Virus record (IMG/VR): IMGVR_UViG_2974610597_000001
Source: Escherichia virus ESCO5
Lineage: Duplodnaviria; Heunggongvirae; Uroviricota; Caudoviricetes
Direction: 5' to 3' (one strand)
DNA length: 64,000 nucleotides
Positions within the stretch are counted from its first letter, which is position 1; every line of letters begins with the position of its first letter. Positions 49,706 through 58,591 of this stretch are shown piece by piece. The notes beneath the pieces were generated by a model, which was given only the letters and a program-made list of their open reading frames with translations, did no database searches and had not been told where the DNA came from. Made by a program: the position numbers and the translations under genes.

Positions 49706-49999
49706 ATGATGAACATTACTTTAGCAACTAAGAATATTTCTGAAACAATTAACGGTTTTGGTGTGATTGTAGCCTTGCACGGTAACAATGAGAAATGGTT
49801 GGCTTCTTTTGAAGAGGATCGTCAACACAACATTATTTTAGATGCCCCTATAAAAGTTATGCATATCGTTGGTGAAAGCAAAGTGCTCACTTCCTCCCGT
49901 TCAAAAGAACAAATTACAAATGAATTAGTAAAACTGCTTGACAATGTTCTTAACATGTTTGATAATGCACCCATCGATACAAAACGTGTCTTAATGTGA
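49706..49999 (+). CDS. Hypothetical protein
   Basis: 97-aa ORF, first gene of plus-strand operon. Confidence 0.35.
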   Translation: MMNITLATKNISETINGFGVIVALHGNNEKWLASFEEDRQHNIILDAPIKVMHIVGESKVLTSSRSKEQITNELVKLLDNVLNMFDNAPIDTKRVLM

Positions 50000-50011
50000 G
50001 AGGAGAACAAA

Positions 50012-50299
50012 ATGTACTATTCACAAGACGAAGTAGCAAACATTAAACTGGCAGTGGGAGATCTTATTGTGTCACCTAACTACTATTGGGATAACACAGA
50101 TTTGGTTGAAGTAGTAACCCATGTTGGAGTTGAAGGTATTGTGCTCTACACACTAGGTGGAGGTGTTGTTGGGGAAATGGAACGTTATACGACAACGAAG
50201 AAACTGGTAAGCTCTTATCACATGTTTTTACACCAAGGTTCGGAAGAGTATACAGCTTTCTTGTTGAAATTAGATGCAGATCGGGAGAAGGCACGATGA
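50012..50299 (+). CDS. Hypothetical protein
   Basis: 95-aa ORF. Confidence 0.35.
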   Translation: MYYSQDEVANIKLAVGDLIVSPNYYWDNTDLVEVVTHVGVEGIVLYTLGGGVVGEMERYTTTKKLVSSYHMFLHQGSEEYTAFLLKLDADREKAR

Positions 50300-50652
50300 A
50301 AATTGTACACGATGAAATTCAAATAGAAGAAAGTGACCTGATGGATTTGGATGCAGCTTTGGGGAAGGTAATCTATGCAGGAATTAAAGCCTTCCGTGAG
50401 AAGGCAAACAATAGCACGTTTGTCATGATCCCCACTAAACTGATGCGTGTTTTGTATCCAAATAGAAGTGCGCCGTATACAGATGAAGAAGAGGAGACAG
50501 GTAGAAGAGAGTGGTTAAATATTTTAGAAAAGATGGAGAATGCTTTTATTGATAGTGGTAATCCAGAAATCGTGTATGCTGAAGATCAAAGGAAGGCACG
50601 GTTAGAGGGCCGTCTTTTATTCGCTAGTTATTTTGATAATCTTTGGAGCTAA
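50296..50652 (+). CDS. Hypothetical protein
   Basis: 118-aa ORF, ATGA overlap. Confidence 0.35.
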   Translation: MKIVHDEIQIEESDLMDLDAALGKVIYAGIKAFREKANNSTFVMIPTKLMRVLYPNRSAPYTDEEEETGRREWLNILEKMENAFIDSGNPEIVYAEDQRKARLEGRLLFASYFDNLWS

Positions 50653-50831
50653 ATATGTCTGAATTCTTCACAATGGCTTTCTTAGGGATCTATCTGATTA
50701 TTAGTGCTGTTGGCTTAATCATGTCTCTAATAGAGGAAATGGGAATTAAGTGGAATTGTGCATTCGGTATAGCTCTTATGCTCACTCCAGTTTGGATCTA
50801 CATTTGCAAATCGGTTGAACTAATTGGTTAA
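50643..50831 (+). CDS. Small membrane protein
   Basis: 62 aa, two hydrophobic helices. Confidence 0.3.
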   Translation: MELNMSEFFTMAFLGIYLIISAVGLIMSLIEEMGIKWNCAFGIALMLTPVWIYICKSVELIG

Positions 50832-51180
50832 TGGAGGTAATATGTTTAGTAAAGAAATGAGAGAGGTGATCGCTACTCTGGTAGTTGATCATGGTGTTGA
50901 AGTTGAGCGTCACGTTTGGAAAGACGAGCCTCCTTTCTTTGATTTGGCATCACGGGCTAAAAGTCACATGTATCTCCTTGAAGATGATAAGGATTTTATT
51001 CTGCGTATGCGTTATGATCGAGAGTTTAGAATTCCTCTTGACACAGATCCTGATGATGTAGTATTGTGGTTGGCAGAGCATTTCGCATTTAACGCTCTAC
51101 ATGGAAGAAGTTTTGGTAATGAACGTTGGGATACCATTTGTCGTAAACATAATATTGAACCAGAATACGGGAGTATGTAA
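50824..51180 (+). CDS. Hypothetical protein
   Basis: 118-aa ORF. Confidence 0.35.
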   Translation: MVNGGNMFSKEMREVIATLVVDHGVEVERHVWKDEPPFFDLASRAKSHMYLLEDDKDFILRMRYDREFRIPLDTDPDDVVLWLAEHFAFNALHGRSFGNERWDTICRKHNIEPEYGSM

Positions 51181-51431
51181 TGTTAAGTATCAAACCTAAA
51201 ATGATTACTGAAGATCAAAAAGATTACATTTATAAATGTGGTCGGGTGTGGAAAGAATACACTAAAGGTAATGAAGTTATTGTAGTTACGGAACATGCTA
51301 TTTCTTTATCAGATCTTTTTGGTGATTATTTGCAAGTCATTAAAATTGGTATTGACAGAGGTTTGGTGCAGGTGTTAACATTATCCCAAGTTGAAGCAGA
51401 ACACTTAGACAAAATCATTGTCGAGTTCTAA
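51180..51431 (+). CDS. Hypothetical protein
   Basis: 83-aa ORF. Confidence 0.35.
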   Translation: MLSIKPKMITEDQKDYIYKCGRVWKEYTKGNEVIVVTEHAISLSDLFGDYLQVIKIGIDRGLVQVLTLSQVEAEHLDKIIVEF

Positions 51432-51609
51432 GAGGAGAAAGAATATGATCTCTTTAGAATCAATAGCTTTTAAGAAAGGGTATACCGCAGGGTTCAAGTT
51501 TGGTATGTTTAATAAAGTAAATCCATATTGTCCAATGACACACAAAAAGGAATTCGAAGAATGGGAAGATGGATTTTCTAAAGGCTATCAGGCAAAGGGT
51601 TGGTTGTAA
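51418..51609 (+). CDS. Small hypothetical protein
   Basis: 63-aa ORF; start may be ATG at 51435 after GAGGAGAAAG. Confidence 0.3.
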   Translation: MSSSKRRKNMISLESIAFKKGYTAGFKFGMFNKVNPYCPMTHKKEFEEWEDGFSKGYQAKGWL

Positions 51610-51618
51610 GGAGAGAAT

Positions 51619-51783
51619 ATGATTTTAAACTTCATCATCAACTTGTGTTTGACATTGGGACTACTTTGTGCAATAGTATCCCCTTTGGTTGGTGAATATT
51701 GTTCTGAATTGGCGATGTTTATAGTTCTTGGTGCGGCTATTGCTAATATGTTTGTCGCTGCGATTTGTATGTTGTGGGAATAG
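51619..51783 (+). CDS. Small membrane protein (missed by ORF track, 54 aa)
   Basis: SD AGGAGAG then ATG at 51619; MILNFIINLCLTLGLLCAIVSPLVGEYCSELAMFIVLGAAIANMFVAAICMLWE. Confidence 0.35.
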   Translation: MILNFIINLCLTLGLLCAIVSPLVGEYCSELAMFIVLGAAIANMFVAAICMLWE

Positions 51784-51794
51784 GAGGGAAGTTT

Positions 51795-52151
51795 ATGAAA
51801 AAATTAATCTTAGCCACATTGCTGGCTACCGTAAGCTTCACCACTTACGCTCAAAAATTTGTAGCAGTTAAAACGGATATTGGTAAAGATGTTGTGATCA
51901 CAGGCAACAAGTTTTACTATACACCTGGAAATGGTGTTCTAGAAGAGTGTAAAGATGTTGAGGCATATACAGGAAAAGAAGATAACACGGAACGTCCTTT
52001 TTATTCGATTATAGCTACTTGCAAAAATGAAATAGTAGCTATTAAACAATACAAAGATGCCCCTGGAGGAGAGTACTTATTAATCAAGAATATTAAGAGT
52101 GAAAAAACTGCAAAGTTTACAGTAATTATTTTAAAAGGAGAAACGTTCTAA
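51795..52151 (+). CDS. Secreted protein
   Basis: Start refined to ATG at 51795 after AGGAGGGAAG; signal peptide MKKLILATLLATVSFTTYAQ. Confidence 0.4.
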   Translation: MKKLILATLLATVSFTTYAQKFVAVKTDIGKDVVITGNKFYYTPGNGVLEECKDVEAYTGKEDNTERPFYSIIATCKNEIVAIKQYKDAPGGEYLLIKNIKSEKTAKFTVIILKGETF

Positions 52152-53290
52152 TGAAATACACTATTTTTGGAGATGTGGCTGTTGTAAATAAGGAATATGG
52201 CGTTGAAGCTAATAAACTTCCTGCTGGAGTTTGGGTTGTCAACTGCGATCCGCACGGTAACTACTCTTTAGTGCGTGGTGAAAGTTTCTCTCTTCCGAAC
52301 ACTCTTTATGGGGAAACTAAAGACCGCGCCGCACATGTTATTAAAACATTTGCTCGTCGTAGTAAAGAAGGTAAAAATACTGGGGTGTTACTGACAGGGA
52401 CAAAGGGCAGTGGTAAGACGATGTTAGCTAAACTGATTAGCATGTCCCTAATGTCCACAGAAGGTTTAGGTATTCCAACCATTTTGGTGACACAGCCTTA
52501 CACAGATGCTGGATTCTTAGAATTTATGAGCAAAATTACAGATCGTGCTGTTGTTTTATTTGACGAGTTTGATAAAGTGTACGCTAAGAAAGAAGATCAG
52601 GAAGCACTGTTGACCTTGTTGGATGGAACAGGAAGTGGAAATAAACTTTACATCCTCACTAAAAATAGTGGCTATATCTCGGAATATTTTGTAAACCGTC
52701 CTAGTCGTATCTATTACAGTTTCAATTACGATAAACTGTCTAGTGAAACTATGTTAGATTACTTGGATAAGAACTTGGTAAATAAAAAACACGTAGATAA
52801 CTTCCAACGTTTATGGGATGTTAGCACAGAGTTGTCTTTCGATGTTATTCAAGGCATTGTAGAAGAATTGAATTTCTATCCAAAAATGACTTTTAAAGAA
52901 TGTCTTGAAATGATGGGTATTTCTTTAGGGAACGATGCTAAATGGAATGTGGCTTCTATCGTAGCTAATGGCAAAACCTTGAAGGTGAATTGGATCAATA
53001 ACTGGCACGACTTCACCCCTACTAAGTTTTTGTCGGGTGCTTGTTCCCTGAACATCTATCTACAAAGTTTGAAAGATGATGAAGTGGAAGCAATGGAAAC
53101 CAACAGTTATGTTATCCTGGATGAAGATGGTGATCCACATATTGATCTATGTGCAACGGCTGATGGTCTAACTTGTGATCTGATTGAAGGTGGTAAGATT
53201 CTGGTTATGAGCACTACACCAGGAAACACTCTGCGAGTGGTGCTGGAGCCTGTAACACAACGTTCCACCACACTGGGTAGCGTGTTCTAA
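52151..53290 (+). CDS. AAA+ ATPase
   Basis: 379 aa; Walker A LTGTKGSGKTMLAKLI, Walker B VVLFDEFDK. Confidence 0.6.
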   Translation: MKYTIFGDVAVVNKEYGVEANKLPAGVWVVNCDPHGNYSLVRGESFSLPNTLYGETKDRAAHVIKTFARRSKEGKNTGVLLTGTKGSGKTMLAKLISMSLMSTEGLGIPTILVTQPYTDAGFLEFMSKITDRAVVLFDEFDKVYAKKEDQEALLTLLDGTGSGNKLYILTKNSGYISEYFVNRPSRIYYSFNYDKLSSETMLDYLDKNLVNKKHVDNFQRLWDVSTELSFDVIQGIVEELNFYPKMTFKECLEMMGISLGNDAKWNVASIVANGKTLKVNWINNWHDFTPTKFLSGACSLNIYLQSLKDDEVEAMETNSYVILDEDGDPHIDLCATADGLTCDLIEGGKILVMSTTPGNTLRVVLEPVTQRSTTLGSVF

Positions 53291-53294
53291 TAAA

Positions 53295-53320
53295 GATGCC
53301 CCGCAAGGGGCATTTCTTAT
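53295..53320 (+). terminator. Rho-independent terminator
   Basis: GATGCCCC-GCAA-GGGGCATT then TCTTAT directly after ATPase stop. Confidence 0.5.
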
Positions 53321-53331
53321 AGGATGAAATC

Positions 53332-54540
53332 ATGAGTAAAGCTAAAAGTTGGGAAGAATATAAAGCAGAATGCGAGATCATAGCTCTCTCTAAAGGATAT
53401 AAAATTTTAGGCCATAAAGAATGGAAAGGGTGTGAGACTAAACTCCTGATAGAATGTCCTGTGCACGGTGTATGGGATACTTGTAAAATATCTAACTTTA
53501 AAAGTGGGAAGTCTTGCCCTTCTTGTGGTGAATTAACAAAAAGGGAGAAGAGAACGAAGAGCAGAGAGGACCAAGAGAAAGAGTGTGAAGAAGAAGCGTT
53601 AAAAAGAGGTTGGCGCTTCTTGGGTATCTACGGAGAATGGCTGAAAGCTAAAAAGACACGAGTAATCTTACGTTGTGATAGGGGTCACGAGTTTAACACA
53701 TCTACCATAGACAACTTTAAGAATAATAAACAAGGTTGTCCAGTTTGTCGTTTAGAGGATATAGGTAAACACAATAAGCTTTCAGACGATCAGCACATAC
53801 AAGATTTCATGAGTACGGGTGTGTTTCCCGAAGGCACTACCTTCACTAATACAGGGGAAAAAGCTGGGAGGAGCGAAATACTTTGGAGTGTATTTTGCCC
53901 TATCTGTGCTATAGATGAGTTTTCCAAAGCTGGGGTAGGAACGGGATATTTTATCGGTAGAGGTAGTTCATTAAAACAGGGTATGCGCCCTTGTCGTTGT
54001 TCTGCCAGTTACAAATATTCTGAAGAAGAGATGACATTTAGAGCAAAAAGTGACGTAGAACGTAGAGGGTACGTGTGGTTGGGGTGGATTGGGAAAGCTT
54101 CTATACTTGGGGATTTTGAATATGGTTGCAAGGATCATGGGAAACATGTGTGTAGTGCTAACAATTGGTTAAATAAGGGGTGTGGTTGCCCTGGTTGTGC
54201 AGGTATGAATCAACAACAAGCCTACATTAATTATATTTACGATGAGCAAGATATTATCTGTGCACTGAAGTTTGGTATTGCTAATAATAGTAATCGCCGT
54301 ATGAAAGAACAAAATAGTCGTAATGTGTTTACTATGAAACAGAGCCAAGTGTGGCACTTCCCTACTGTGAAGCAATGCAAAGATGCAGAAAAGCGTTGTA
54401 AGCGTGTCCTTCACACGGAAGCAGTGAGCAAATATTCTATGCCAGATGGCTACACAGAGACAGTGGAGTTATCTTGCATGGCATCAATACAAAATATTTA
54501 TAAACTTTATGGTGGAACATTACAGGAGGAAACATGTTAG
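53332..54540 (+). CDS. Cys/His-rich repeat protein (three zinc-binding modules) with possible T5orf172/GIY-YIG-like C-terminal domain
   Basis: 402 aa; three repeats of K(G/R)(Y/W)..LG...W.G......C..HG ... GCP.C; C-terminal YINYIYDEQDIICALKFGIANNSNRRMKEQ. Confidence 0.35.
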   Translation: MSKAKSWEEYKAECEIIALSKGYKILGHKEWKGCETKLLIECPVHGVWDTCKISNFKSGKSCPSCGELTKREKRTKSREDQEKECEEEALKRGWRFLGIYGEWLKAKKTRVILRCDRGHEFNTSTIDNFKNNKQGCPVCRLEDIGKHNKLSDDQHIQDFMSTGVFPEGTTFTNTGEKAGRSEILWSVFCPICAIDEFSKAGVGTGYFIGRGSSLKQGMRPCRCSASYKYSEEEMTFRAKSDVERRGYVWLGWIGKASILGDFEYGCKDHGKHVCSANNWLNKGCGCPGCAGMNQQQAYINYIYDEQDIICALKFGIANNSNRRMKEQNSRNVFTMKQSQVWHFPTVKQCKDAEKRCKRVLHTEAVSKYSMPDGYTETVELSCMASIQNIYKLYGGTLQEETC

Positions 54541-54899
54541 TTGACGTTCAAATTATGCGCAACGAAAGAATGGACTTCTTTGAAGCAGTAGAGAAACATC
54601 TGATCCGATGGGACTATGAATTTGTTCCTGCTGGATGTGGACCAGTAGAGCATTTAGCGGAAGACGACGATGTATACATGATCATTCGTCAAGTGTACCA
54701 GACAGACCAGTGTGAAGAAACTCCCGAACTGATTTTGTTTGAGTGTAAAGATCTTGCAAAATATTTTGACTATGGTGGAAAAGAGGGTCATAATCTCTCC
54801 AGATACAATAAACGTCTACTTATCTTAGACTACATGCGGAACAACAAACACAAACTCATCGACGCAGACGCAGTTTATGGCTACTGGTGGATGGACTAA
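54534..54899 (+). CDS. Hypothetical protein
   Basis: 121-aa ORF. Confidence 0.35.
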   Translation: MLVDVQIMRNERMDFFEAVEKHLIRWDYEFVPAGCGPVEHLAEDDDVYMIIRQVYQTDQCEETPELILFECKDLAKYFDYGGKEGHNLSRYNKRLLILDYMRNNKHKLIDADAVYGYWWMD

Positions 54900-54912
54900 C
54901 AAAGGAGAAACT

Positions 54913-55092
54913 ATGGCACGTTTAGCAGACCATGAAATCTTTAAACCTATTCTGAACCACTATGATGAACTTAAGGCAGTGTTGGATTGTTATAGAGAGG
55001 ATGAAGAACGTTTGGAAGTGAATCTTAAGATAGTTCTGATGAAAGCTTTTCAAGACGGGCAAGCTGAAGTCTTAGGAGGCATGAAAAAATGA
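54913..55092 (+). CDS. Small hypothetical protein
   Basis: Start refined to ATG at 54913 after AAAGGAGAAA. Confidence 0.3.
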   Translation: MARLADHEIFKPILNHYDELKAVLDCYREDEERLEVNLKIVLMKAFQDGQAEVLGGMKK

Positions 55093-55631
55093 GAATAACT
55101 GATGAATATGTATTCTTCTTTTCACATAAAGATGTGTTTAGTAATTGGTATATTGCACCCTTTACAGAAACCGAACCAGGTTACAATCAGACATTTAATT
55201 GTGTCGAACAATACATGATGTGGCGTAAAGCTTTGCTTTTTAATGACCACAACACGGCACAGGCTATTCTGACTCATAGTTTGATACGGAAAGATGAGAA
55301 GATCCAAGCTTATTACAAACGTATGGGTAGGGCAGTGTCAGATTTTGATAACAACGTATGGGAAGAGAACCGTGAGCGTATTGTTATGCGAGGTTTATGC
55401 TTGAAATATGTACAGAATCCAGATTTGTATGCAGACTTACACCTTTACCAATACAAAACGTTTGTTGAAGCAAGTCCTTACGATAAGGTTTACGGTATTG
55501 GAATGGGAATGTATGAACCAGGGGTGCTAAATCCGGTCAACTGGAAAGGGCAAAATCTTTTAGGTAAATATCATAACAAACTGATCGAAATACTTTTCCC
55601 AGACAAAATACCGCAAAGACGATATTTGTGA
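55089..55631 (+). CDS. NADAR-domain (YbiA-like) protein
   Basis: 180 aa; FFFSHKDVFSNWYIAPF ... GYNQTFNCVEQYMMWRKALLFND and C-terminal NWKGQNLLGKYHNKLIEIL match conserved NADAR/DUF1768 blocks. Confidence 0.55.
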   Translation: MRITDEYVFFFSHKDVFSNWYIAPFTETEPGYNQTFNCVEQYMMWRKALLFNDHNTAQAILTHSLIRKDEKIQAYYKRMGRAVSDFDNNVWEENRERIVMRGLCLKYVQNPDLYADLHLYQYKTFVEASPYDKVYGIGMGMYEPGVLNPVNWKGQNLLGKYHNKLIEILFPDKIPQRRYL

Positions 55632-55686
55632 TATTTTAACTTTTTTCATTTTTAGAACAAAGGCGTCACTTTGTAGCACAGAAATA

Positions 55687-55722
55687 AGGCTCCTACAGCA
55701 CCGTAGAGAGCCTATTATTTTG
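55687..55722 (+). terminator. Rho-independent terminator ending the plus-strand operon
   Basis: Hairpin AGGCTCCTACAGCACCGTAGAGAGCCT followed by ATTATTTTG. Confidence 0.45.
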
Positions 55723-55875
55723 TCCTATACAAACCCTTGTCTTTTTCAGTTTGCATCACTAGGATTCGATCTGAGTGGGTTCCTGAAGGTCTGCCAATAA
55801 GATTAAAGGTTATCTCAAATTCCCACTACCTATTATCTCAAAAATCCCTCAAATTATTTAAACTTTTTAAGAATT

Positions 55876-56060
55876 TACAAAAGTGAAAGTTGAAAACCAA
55901 AATTTAAAGTTTAGGAAAATTATCTTAAAATGTCAGATACAAAACAAAACTCAAAAGTCAAGGAAAATTTTAAAAATTTTGCGCGCCCACAGTATTTAAA
56001 GTTTTTTTGCTTTTACAAAAATGAAAGTACAAAAGCAAAATTTAAAGTTTACAAAAATTT
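55876..56060. repeat. AT-rich direct repeats (about 45 bp, 2 full plus 1 partial copy)
   Basis: acaaaagtgaaagttgaaaaccaaaatttaaagtttaggaaaat (55876-) and acaaaaatgaaagtacaaaagcaaaatttaaagtttacaaaaat (56013-), with related partial copy around 55940. Confidence 0.7.
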
Positions 56061-56069
56061 ATGCAGATG

Positions 56070-56185
56070 GGAATGAGAAGAGTTCTCATATGGAAATGCA
56101 AATGATAATGATTCGCATTTAGGTTTATAAATGAGATTGATTCTTATTTGATAAGGTAAATGATAATCATTCTCATTTAGAGAAT
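56070..56185. repeat. Array of four about 29-bp tandem repeats, each carrying an imperfect palindrome AAATGAnA...TTCnCATTT (iteron/operator-like)
   Basis: Units begin near 56072, 56101, 56129, 56158: aatgagaagagttctcat / aatgataatgattcgcattt / aatgagattgattcttattt / aatgataatcattctcattt. Confidence 0.7.
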
Positions 56186-56436
56186 GACGCGCAGGGGCGG
56201 TGTTTGTCTCGCGCTCCCGTGTCCCCTCGCCATGTAATAAGAATAACAGATCCAGCCAGGAAAGCAAGCGATTATTTTATCTTTACATTTCTTTACAAAT
56301 ATATAGCGCCCAGCCTACCGGCGATCAACCTTCCAACCAGCGCCCTGGTATGTTAGCCCCGCCTTTACGCCGTGGGGGTGGCGCTTCCTCTTCTGTATGT
56401 AAAACAGTATAAGCCCGATCCCTGGGCTTGTCAAGA

Positions 56437-56703
56437 TTATTTTTTGTTTTCTTGCCAGGATAGGACACCTAACCAAAAATGCATATCGCCCCGCGCCCCT
56501 GGTGGGATCTTGCTTTCCCCGCCGCCACTGCAAGCCCATAAATAACCATCAGCGAACGGATCAAAGTTTTCTATTTCTTCCACCTTATGATCGCCCAGGT
56601 TGAGAACTGTTTCAACCTTTAAGCCCGTTGCGCTTGCTACCTGGTGCACCGTGCCGCCTTGCCAGCCTAATGAGTGCATAAGGTGTAATGTAGTATTCGT
56701 CAT
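56437..56703 (-). CDS. Hypothetical protein encoded in GC-rich island, opposite strand to flanking genes
   Basis: 88-aa ORF MTNTTLHLMHSLGWQGGTVHQVASATG...; ATG at 56703 preceded by AAAGAAAGGG; local GC clearly above phage average. Confidence 0.3.
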   Translation of the reverse strand: MTNTTLHLMHSLGWQGGTVHQVASATGLKVETVLNLGDHKVEEIENFDPFADGYLWACSGGGESKIPPGARGDMHFWLGVLSWQENKK

Positions 56704-56811: not shown

Positions 56812-56870
56812 TTGACGTTCGCCAGGTGGCGGCATAATATTTACCACGTAGGGCGGCAATGGTGCCGCTC
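56812..56870 (+). promoter_or_regulatory. Promoter-hairpin cassette 1
   Basis: TTGACG - 17 nt - TAATAT, then TTACCACGTA and hairpin GGGCGGCA-ATGG-TGCCGCTC. Confidence 0.55.
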
Positions 56871-56889
56871 ATTATTTGGAGTTAAAATC

Positions 56890-57093: not shown

Positions 57094-57155
57094 TTGACAA
57101 CAAACAACAACCTGATAAGATGTATCACATAGGGCGGCGGAATGGTCCACCGCTC
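57094..57155 (+). promoter_or_regulatory. Promoter-hairpin cassette 2
   Basis: TTGACA - 16 nt - TAAGAT, then GTATCACATA and hairpin GGGCGGCGG...CCACCGCTC. Confidence 0.5.
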
Positions 57156-58344: not shown

Positions 58345-58399
58345 CATATCGCCGCCACTGGCATAATATTTACCACGTAGGGCGGCAATGGTGCCGCTC
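58341..58399 (+). promoter_or_regulatory. Promoter-hairpin cassette 4
   Basis: TTGACA - 17 nt - TAATAT + TTACCACGTA + GGGCGGCAATGGTGCCGCTC; near-identical to cassette 1. Confidence 0.55.
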
Positions 58400-58426
58400 A
58401 TAGTGAAATTATGCAAGAGGCTTACA

Positions 58427-58531: not shown

Positions 58532-58591
58532 TTGACAACGTTTTTTAATCTGATAAGATGTATCACATAGGGCGGCGGAATACTTCCCCGC
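58532..58591 (+). promoter_or_regulatory. Promoter-hairpin cassette 5
   Basis: TTGACA - 16 nt - TAAGAT + GTATCACATA + GGGCGGCGGAATACTTCCCCGCC; spacer near-identical to cassette 2. Confidence 0.5.

Follow-up and report, generated by a model that had tools for sequence, protein, structure and literature searches.

NADAR proteins hydrolyse the guanine-N2-ADP-ribose that is made by DarT1 (Schuller 2023, PMC11543638). The original prediction on this locus had noted that NADAR enzymes are reported to remove the ADP-ribose added to guanine by DarT-type toxins, and the literature bears this out for DarT1 lesions. In vitro, hydrolysis of guanine-ADP-ribose (G-ADPr) has been reported for every NADAR subtype tested, across four families (PMC11125620, PMC12945103). 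In vivo, efficacy differs among the NADARs that are active in vitro (PMC11125620): Escherichia coli YbiA and T4 gp30.3 both hydrolyse G-ADPr in vitro, yet neither rescues cells from DarT1 (PMC11125620). The residue at the catalytic position is Glu in the YbiA-subfamily, Asp in DarG1-type and His in T4-type NADARs (PMC11543638). The Glu-carrying NADAR/YbiA-type enzymes also remove cytidine-ADP-ribose (C-ADPr) from DNA and RNA, whereas the DarG1- and T4-type enzymes do not (PMC12945103).

At the phage level, the closest described proteins come from the AdfN work of Johannesman, Awasthi, Carlson, and LeRoux (bioRxiv 2024, PMC11257639; Nat Commun 2025, PMC11825919). [quoted passage not shown] Two further phage proteins, AdfN^Bas32 and AdfN^Bas60, neutralised DarT1 in uninfected cells when they were ectopically expressed, and their ectopic expression also brought RB69, T5, and Bas25 back to full titre on DarTG1 hosts; DarTG2 was unaffected by either of them (PMC11825919). 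The evidence for AdfN^Bas60 comes from ectopic expression only, and the protein was placed among the non-YbiA-like NADARs (PMC11825919). Phages Bas60-62 are termed 'Vequintavirinae' in that study (PMC11825919) and phi92-like relatives in the BASEL paper. In GenBank, Bas60 (PaulScherrer, MZ501100) is assigned to Justusliebigvirus, within the subfamily Stephanstirmvirinae. The Bas60 NADAR gene, and thus AdfN^Bas60, is bas60_0111 (QXV83846.1), annotated as 'putative YbiA-like N-glycosidase'.

Here, we analysed a NADAR gene in a 64-kb stretch of phage DNA (64,000 nucleotides, called the window from here on; its position 1 is position 84248 of the record). A 4.5-kb query around this gene matched Escherichia phage ESCO5 (NC_047776.2 / KX664695.3) with 100% identity and about 140 related records with 80-97%. 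ESCO5 belongs to the genus Phapecoctavirus and, like Bas60, to the subfamily Stephanstirmvirinae; its genome has 149,268 bp, and it was isolated on avian-pathogenic E. coli. The Phapecoctavirus phages phAPEC8, ESCO5, and 536_P1 are being studied for the therapy of infections by avian and extra-intestinal pathogenic E. coli. No tRNA genes were found in the 64-kb window.

The NADAR-domain gene lies at 55089..55631 on the plus strand; from its ATG start it codes for 180 aa, followed by the stop codon. It corresponds to HOR27_gp149 (YP_009787236.1), and we predict that its product, gp149, is an AdfN-type guanine-ADP-ribose glycohydrolase. The NADAR/YbiA blocks on which the gene had been recognised, FSNWYIAPF...FNCVEQYMMWRKALLF and NWKGQNLLGKY, can both be read in the translation of 55089-55631. 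A Shine-Dalgarno sequence (AGGAGG; 55074..55079, plus strand) was read directly from the sequence 9 nt 5' of the ATG, and the start is supported by the Bas60 orthologue, which aligns co-linearly from M1 (MRITD).

The gene is the last of 14 closely spaced genes that run in the same direction on the plus strand (49709..55631), with annotated inter-gene gaps of ≤41 nt. It had been described as the last gene of its operon, which agrees with this run of 14 annotated co-directional CDSs. Most members of the block are small and unannotated. Among the others are an AAA ATPase gene (52151-53290, plus strand) and a CapR-domain gene (53332-54540, plus strand), both syntenic with the Bas60 locus. The CapR gene is separated from the NADAR gene by two small ORFs. 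The second one (54913..55092, plus strand) encodes 59 aa as annotated and belongs to PHROG 22330, of unknown function. Its TGA overlaps the NADAR ATG (ATGA), and this stop/start overlap suggests that the NADAR gene is translationally coupled to the preceding ORF. When the ESCO5 neighbours were compared with the Bas60 locus by tblastn, this ORF had no counterpart there. No ART (ADP-ribosyltransferase) domain was seen among the neighbours of the NADAR gene –ATPase, CapR-domain protein, and small ORFs. No DarT or other ADP-ribosyltransferase gene lies near it, and none is annotated in the window. By Pfam and annotation, the window also lacks riboflavin-pathway genes and RibA/RibD fusions.

Downstream of the gene, an intrinsic-terminator-like hairpin occupies 55681..55721 (plus strand); its core stem (55687-55713) carries one bulged A and is followed by AUUAUUUU. 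When folded as RNA, the segment 55680-55725 formed a 16-pair hairpin with a dG of -16.2 kcal/mol and a z of -4.75, and 0 of 200 shuffles folded as well. A simple terminator scan called no site directly 3' of the NADAR gene, because the stem carries a bulge. The phAPEC8 record lists an ARNold terminator at this site, 56 nt 3' of the stop codon, and the element is nearly identical there. The original prediction had placed a terminator just after the gene, and it held: the folding gives a bulged hairpin with a U-tract, the phAPEC8 record annotates it, and only the simple scan missed it. The hairpin showed no recognisable conservation in Bas60, and an Rfam scan of the long gap downstream of the NADAR gene returned nothing credible.

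At the protein level, the profile matches, the fold, and the active-site residues all identify gp149 as a NADAR. The search against the NADAR/DUF1768 profile that had been proposed as a check returned a clear match: the protein scored 123 bits against Pfam NADAR (PF08719 / DUF1768; E 1.8e-35), far above the gathering cutoff of 35.1, and covered profile positions 3-154 of 163. No other family was returned by the Pfam scan. It also matched TIGR02464 (112.3 bits, with a cutoff of 73.7) and PHROG 1017, of unknown function (E 5e-52). TIGR02464 is a NADAR domain model originally defined from RibA/RibD fusions and is titled riboflavin biosynthesis intermediates N-glycosidase. With 16.5 bits against a cutoff of 240, the protein is not a member of the NCBIfam family 'DS32_2 NADAR family anti-phage protein'.

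Structure prediction and comparison of the active site, proposed as a further check, gave a concordant result, since the model has the alpha+beta fold of NADARs and matches only NADARs, and seven of the eight key residues are conserved. The AlphaFold2 model, built on an alignment of 69 homologues, reached a pLDDT of 95.4 and a pTM of 0.89. Its sole significant fold matches in the PDB (Foldseek) were 8BAU (E 6.3e-10, TM 0.79), a NADAR from Phytophthora nicotianae (PnNADAR) with bound ADP-ribose, and YbiA (2B3W; TM 0.66). In 8BAU, the ADP-ribose is held by K50, R79, W89, R93, W133, D130, E43, and E125 (Schuller 2023, PMC11543638). We mapped these residues through the phmmer alignment, with an offset of +2 in the chain numbering: E43, K50, R79, W89, R93, E125, and D130 correspond to E40, K47, R81, W91, R95, E127, and D132 in ESCO5. 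Within the 69 homologues, E40, K47, W91, E127, and D132 are invariant (69/69), R81 is kept in 67, and R95 in 42. The one contact residue that changed is W133, which is replaced by Tyr135; Tyr is also found at this position in AdfN^Bas60 and in 19 of the 69 homologues.

Three codons of the plus strand mark the core of the predicted active site. The Glu40 codon (55206..55208) corresponds to PnNADAR E43, which contacts the distal ribose, and the Lys47 codon (55227..55229) to PnNADAR K50 and to the catalytic K95 of the E. coli C7 NADAR. The Glu127 codon (55467..55469) lies within a VEAS motif and corresponds to PnNADAR E125, the catalytic Glu of the YbiA-subfamily. Because of this Glu in 'VEAS', the aligned sequence places the protein in the Glu-type group (YbiA-subfamily sensu Aravind), and neither in the Asp-type of DarG1 nor in the His-type of T4.

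When compared to Bas60, gp149 and the bas60_0111 product share 59% identity over 172 aa (E 4e-69) and are co-linear from Met1. By tblastn, the ESCO5 neighbours were found in a shared order at the Bas60 locus, with 64% identity for the ATPase, 46% for the CapR protein, and 59% for the NADAR protein. The genes downstream of the NADAR gene are also shared: a small minus-strand gene at 96% and others at 65-93%. Thus, judged by the 59% identity together with the conserved gene order, the ESCO5 gene is the positional orthologue of AdfN^Bas60, a validated anti-DarTG1 factor. The features of an AdfN are found together in this gene: it is phage-encoded, it has no adjacent ART toxin, and it is orthologous to a validated AdfN. 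The gene had been proposed as a plausible phage counter-defence gene, and the existence of a 59%-identical syntenic orthologue that counters DarTG1 supports this putative role. Our literature search brought up no study in which a Phapecoctavirus had been tested on DarTG1 hosts.

The NADAR family is widespread among phages. By tblastn, related NADARs were found in 719 phage records. Identities of at least 80% were seen in 71 records, belonging to Phapecoctavirus, and the phAPEC8 protein is identical to that of ESCO5. The Justusliebigvirus group follows at about 59%, the Vequintavirinae relatives (Klebsiella, Cronobacter, and 4MG) at 38-46%, and many Staphylococcus, Listeria, Enterococcus, and Bacillus myoviruses at 35-40%. 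About 128 Stephanstirmvirinae-type records retain an orthologue. Pairwise identities and synteny, on which our clade statements rest, indicate that the gene would have been present in the common ancestor of Stephanstirmvirinae. When 5,426 complete E. coli genomes were searched by blastn for a possible origin in the chromosome or in a prophage, no match was obtained. Homologues on contigs >300 kb lie in jumbo-phage-like single-strand gene arrays and are not bacterial; NAMPT and phosphoribosyltransferase (PRTase) genes were found nearby, in agreement with the NAD-salvage neighbourhoods that Iyer et al. 2022 described. No ART that could be a toxin partner was found next to P0057 and P0072, the nearest cellular homologues. 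On the PADLOC profile PDC-M42C, a candidate-defence component, the nearest cellular homologues score 147-164 bits, the ESCO5 and Bas60 proteins about 120, and YbiA 56.

At the functional level, we consider it likely that gp149 acts as an AdfN, an orphan NADAR glycohydrolase resembling an antitoxin, and that it reverses DarT1 lesions, with its activity and its DarTG1 target carried over from the orthologue. Its gene would be expressed at the end of a run of small genes, most of which carry no annotation. In an infected DarTG1 host, DarT1 would ADP-ribosylate guanine N2 in the replicating phage DNA and block its replication. Then, gp149 would bind the guanine-N2 ADP-ribose in DNA and cleave the N-glycosidic bond using Glu40, Lys47, and Glu127. 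Removing the lesion would restore the template, so that phage replication could continue.

The substrate is where other readings differ. The natural substrate might be something other than DarT1-modified DNA, either another ADP-ribose conjugate (cytidine-ADPr or RNA-ADPr from the action of other ART toxins, or the product of an uncharacterised defence system) or the soluble ADP-ribose-derived immune signals that Iyer and Aravind proposed as the main target of phage NADARs. The removal of C-ADPr from DNA and RNA by Glu-type NADARs (PMC12945103) is in line with it, as are the NAMPT and PRTase neighbourhoods of the jumbo-phage-like relatives, and the score of about 120 bits on PDC-M42C, compared with 56 for YbiA, may point to descent from a defence module that is not DarTG1. 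However, the orthologue neutralises DarT1 and rescues phages on DarTG1 hosts, which makes DarT1 lesions at least one of the competent substrates (PMC11825919). Moreover, hydrolysis of soluble signals was shown for no NADAR in the literature examined, the bacterial relatives that were inspected have no adjacent ART toxin, and a broader specificity would add to an anti-DarT1 role rather than exclude it. Altogether, we find a different natural substrate unlikely. A more specific version is that the Stephanstirmvirinae NADAR clade derived from the NADAR component of PDC-M42, an uncharacterised candidate defence module in PADLOC whose C component it matches, and not from DarG1. The main substrate would then be the toxin lesion of that system (e.g. 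cytidine-ADPr or RNA-ADPr), with DarT1 neutralisation as a side activity, and the protein might act with the two coupled small ORFs that are specific to Phapecoctavirus; to this scenario we give only about one chance in ten.

Reversal of DarT1 lesions also has to be weighed against readings that leave no room for defence. As a YbiA-like N-glycosidase of riboflavin intermediates, gp149 would serve in overflow or damage control, or else it could underlie a swarming phenotype of the kind linked to YbiA. The TIGR02464 score (112.3 bits vs. 73.7), the catalytic Glu of the YbiA-subfamily type, and the name 'putative YbiA-like N-glycosidase' chosen by the BASEL annotators for the Bas60 orthologue all fit such a role. 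Besides, the YbiA of the temperate Stenotrophomonas phage DLP4, which shares 34.8% identity with the ESCO5 NADAR, has been linked to host phenotypes (PMC6469090). Nevertheless, we regard it as very unlikely. The identity to K-12 YbiA is 29% over 96 aa and 2B3W was missed by phmmer, the window holds no rib gene or fusion, and the Bas60 protein was grouped with the non-YbiA-like NADARs (PMC11825919). It is not evident why a virulent phage of 149 kb would need to control riboflavin overflow, and K-12 YbiA itself hydrolyses G-ADPr (PMC11125620). Finally, the deposited ESCO5 RefSeq/GenBank product name, GTP cyclohydrolase II, can be set aside with near certainty: the name in NC_047776.2 / KX664695.3 and a few relatives is all that speaks for this activity, whereas the fold matches NADARs only and the NADAR domain accounts for all 180 aa. 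This candidate was rejected, as Pfam returned no such domain and NADAR alone.

The deposited name probably came from RibA-NADAR fusion proteins. Homologues are named 'ribA/ribD-fused uncharacterized protein' by JGI. Across the relatives, the names range from 'GTP cyclohydrolase II' and 'YbiA-like N-glycosidase' to 'DNA methyltransferase' and 'hypothetical'. Correcting a misannotation that is propagating is the main practical gain of this analysis. If the AdfN is functional, DarTG1 strains are predicted not to restrict Phapecoctavirus phages, and this would help both in predicting host range and in designing cocktails. The clade of AdfN^Bas60 is also extended to a second genus, and the 719 records, which include biocontrol myoviruses, suggest that phages very commonly use the reversal of ADP-ribosylation as a counter-measure.

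Regarding novelty, the reversal of DarT1 damage by orphan NADARs of phages is already known, including for the orthologue from the sister genus, and the mechanism and the family were published between 2023 and 2025. The idea behind the original prediction is therefore sound but not new. The ESCO5 NADAR opens no new question, and a specialist would not be surprised by it.

When compared to known systems, gp149 resembles AdfN^T4 (gp30.3), the first anti-DarTG1 NADAR from a phage, as an orphan phage enzyme of the NADAR superfamily, with removal of G-ADPr from phage DNA as the shared, here predicted, function. Kinship in sequence was considered and rejected, as BLASTP against gp30.3 gave E 4.2, with no detectable similarity. 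The T4 protein belongs to PF08010 (Phage_30_3) and the ESCO5 protein to PF08719, and His is reported for the T4-type where ESCO5 has Glu127. They are likely independent acquisitions. In addition, AdfN^T4 needs the setting of a T-even infection to work: unlike AdfN^Bas60, it fails to neutralise DarT1 when the cells are uninfected (PMC11825919).

DarG1 (BC4488 subfamily; E. coli C7 and G. lovleyi) belongs to the same superfamily and shares the predicted hydrolysis of guanine-N2-ADP-ribose, so gp149 would act functionally as an orphan antitoxin. However, DarG1 has about 230 aa and its gene sits beside DarT1, while the ESCO5 protein has 180 aa and its gene is an orphan. Using the published residue rule (PMC11543638), D171-x-E173 of C7 compares with F125-V-E127 of ESCO5. 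An antitoxin of the DarG1/BC4488 type was rejected, given the lack of a DarT neighbour and Phe125 at the position of the catalytic Asp.

Among solved structures, PnNADAR (8BAU, with ADP-ribose) is the best match, with 59 bits in phmmer, a TM of 0.79, and 29% identity. It shares seven of the eight ligand-contact residues, with its W133 being Tyr in ESCO5, and it is a Glu-type G-ADPr hydrolase of the YbiA-subfamily (PMC11543638), but a eukaryotic orphan with no known role in phage defence. E. coli K-12 YbiA (2B3W) has in common with gp149 the NADAR fold (TM 0.66) and the conserved Glu, and it hydrolyses G-ADPr in vitro (PMC11125620). On the other hand, the two proteins share 29% identity over 96 aa, and phmmer of the ESCO5 protein against PDB sequences did not retrieve 2B3W at E ≤ 0.01. 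YbiA gives no protection against DarT1 in vivo (PMC11125620), and its gene, unlike that of ESCO5, is part of a chromosomal operon that is under LexA control and also contains dinG, rhlE, and ybiB.

AdfN^Bas60 remains the closest counterpart. It differs from gp149 in 41% of the residues, and the two extra small ORFs between the CapR gene and the NADAR gene are found only in ESCO5. Otherwise, both are stand-alone NADARs of about 180 aa, encoded after the AAA ATPase and CapR genes and before the same downstream genes, and they share the catalytic residues, including the Tyr at the W133 position, and the same behaviour on the Pfam and PADLOC profiles.

At the lineage level, we scored NADAR proteins against PDC-M42C, a candidate defence component of PADLOC (model PDLC04643). 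The ESCO5 protein and its orthologue in Bas60 (phage PaulScherrer, from the sister genus Justusliebigvirus) both reached about 120 bits. The nearest cellular NADAR homologues scored 147-164 bits, YbiA of E. coli K-12 only 56 bits, and T4 AdfN gave no score against this model. These scores suggest that the phage clade is nearest to a NADAR lineage of defence islands other than DarTG1. At the two cellular homologues inspected, no toxin gene adjoined NADAR.

On the 5′ side, the NADAR gene has as neighbour a gene annotated as an endonuclease (53332-54540, 402 aa, PHROG 681). The protein has three matches to the CapR homology domain (80.6 bits), and its T5orf172 match was below threshold. The gene keeps its synteny with NADAR in both genera, with just 46% identity to the Bas60 protein, and its internal repeats align to several regions of that protein. 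In Phapecoctavirus, two small ORFs separate it from NADAR: 54534-54899 (PHROG 24465) and 54913-55092 (PHROG 22330), the latter overlapping the NADAR start codon (ATGA). Neither had a match in the Pfam search, and their counterparts are absent from the Justusliebigvirus locus. A functional tie of these two ORFs to NADAR is possible. Further upstream, the + strand block that NADAR closes opens with three genes (49709-50652) that lie on the opposite strand in Bas60 (positions 6-814 of the compared locus, L004). This is a local inversion between the two genera, at the divergent promoter region.

Past the terminator, about 800 nt contain no genes and include a very AT-rich block (55800-56200, 25-30% GC) with a repeat array in two parts. 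The first part consists of direct repeats in two or three copies, with a unit of 29-72 nt (AAAACCAAAATTTAAAGTTTAGGAAAATT, 55850-56059). The second comprises three palindromic 21-mers (AAATGAnAnnnATTCnCATTT, 56100-56178) spaced by exactly 29 nt; these three sites give six matches when both strands are counted, vs. 0.26 expected in the 64-kb window, and no further copies were found elsewhere in it. phAPEC8, Bas60, and inny share this two-part layout, which in some records is annotated as "repeat_region". It resembles an array of iterons or operators and may be a replication origin or regulatory hub.

The GC content then rises to 48-53% in 56200-56700, vs. about 39% around it. This block holds several GC-rich hairpins, and its Rfam scan gave no match. 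Its sole annotated gene (56437-56649, - strand, 70 aa) is 96% identical to the Bas60 counterpart, whereas the flanking genes are far less conserved (35-65%). Farther downstream, a perfect direct repeat of 42 nt (GGCATAATATTTACCACGTAGGGCGGCAATGGTGCCGCTCAT, 56831-56872 and 58360-58401) and a 45-nt repeat of 89% identity (57109-57153 and 58547-58591) are located just 5′ of small + strand genes. Both are probably phage-specific promoter/hairpin modules, since the phAPEC8 record has PHIRE-predicted phage promoters 5′ of small + strand genes in this downstream region, the correspondence with the ESCO5 repeats being at the level of the region.

NADAR genes that share 97-99% identity with their coliphage counterparts (Justusliebigvirus or Phapecoctavirus) were found in records labelled as Campylobacter phage (A150, A145, C3, and A110a) or Acinetobacter phage vB_AbaM_ABPW7. 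These five records (MG065639, MG065645, MG065656, MG065689, and OP562383) are probably mislabelled for host or contain contaminating coliphage.

Apart from these, homologues with 43-45% identity were located on jumbo-phage-like contigs of 328-355 kb. On one of them, L010, NADAR has as neighbours adenylosuccinate synthetase and a weak match to phosphoribosyltransferase. On the JGI 354-kb contig, and on L008 with the same genes, the neighbours are NAD-salvage or nucleotide genes (NAMPT/NAPRTase, phosphoribosyltransferase, and nucleoside 2-deoxyribosyltransferase). NAD-salvage surroundings of this latter kind have already been noted for phage NADARs (Iyer et al. 2022).
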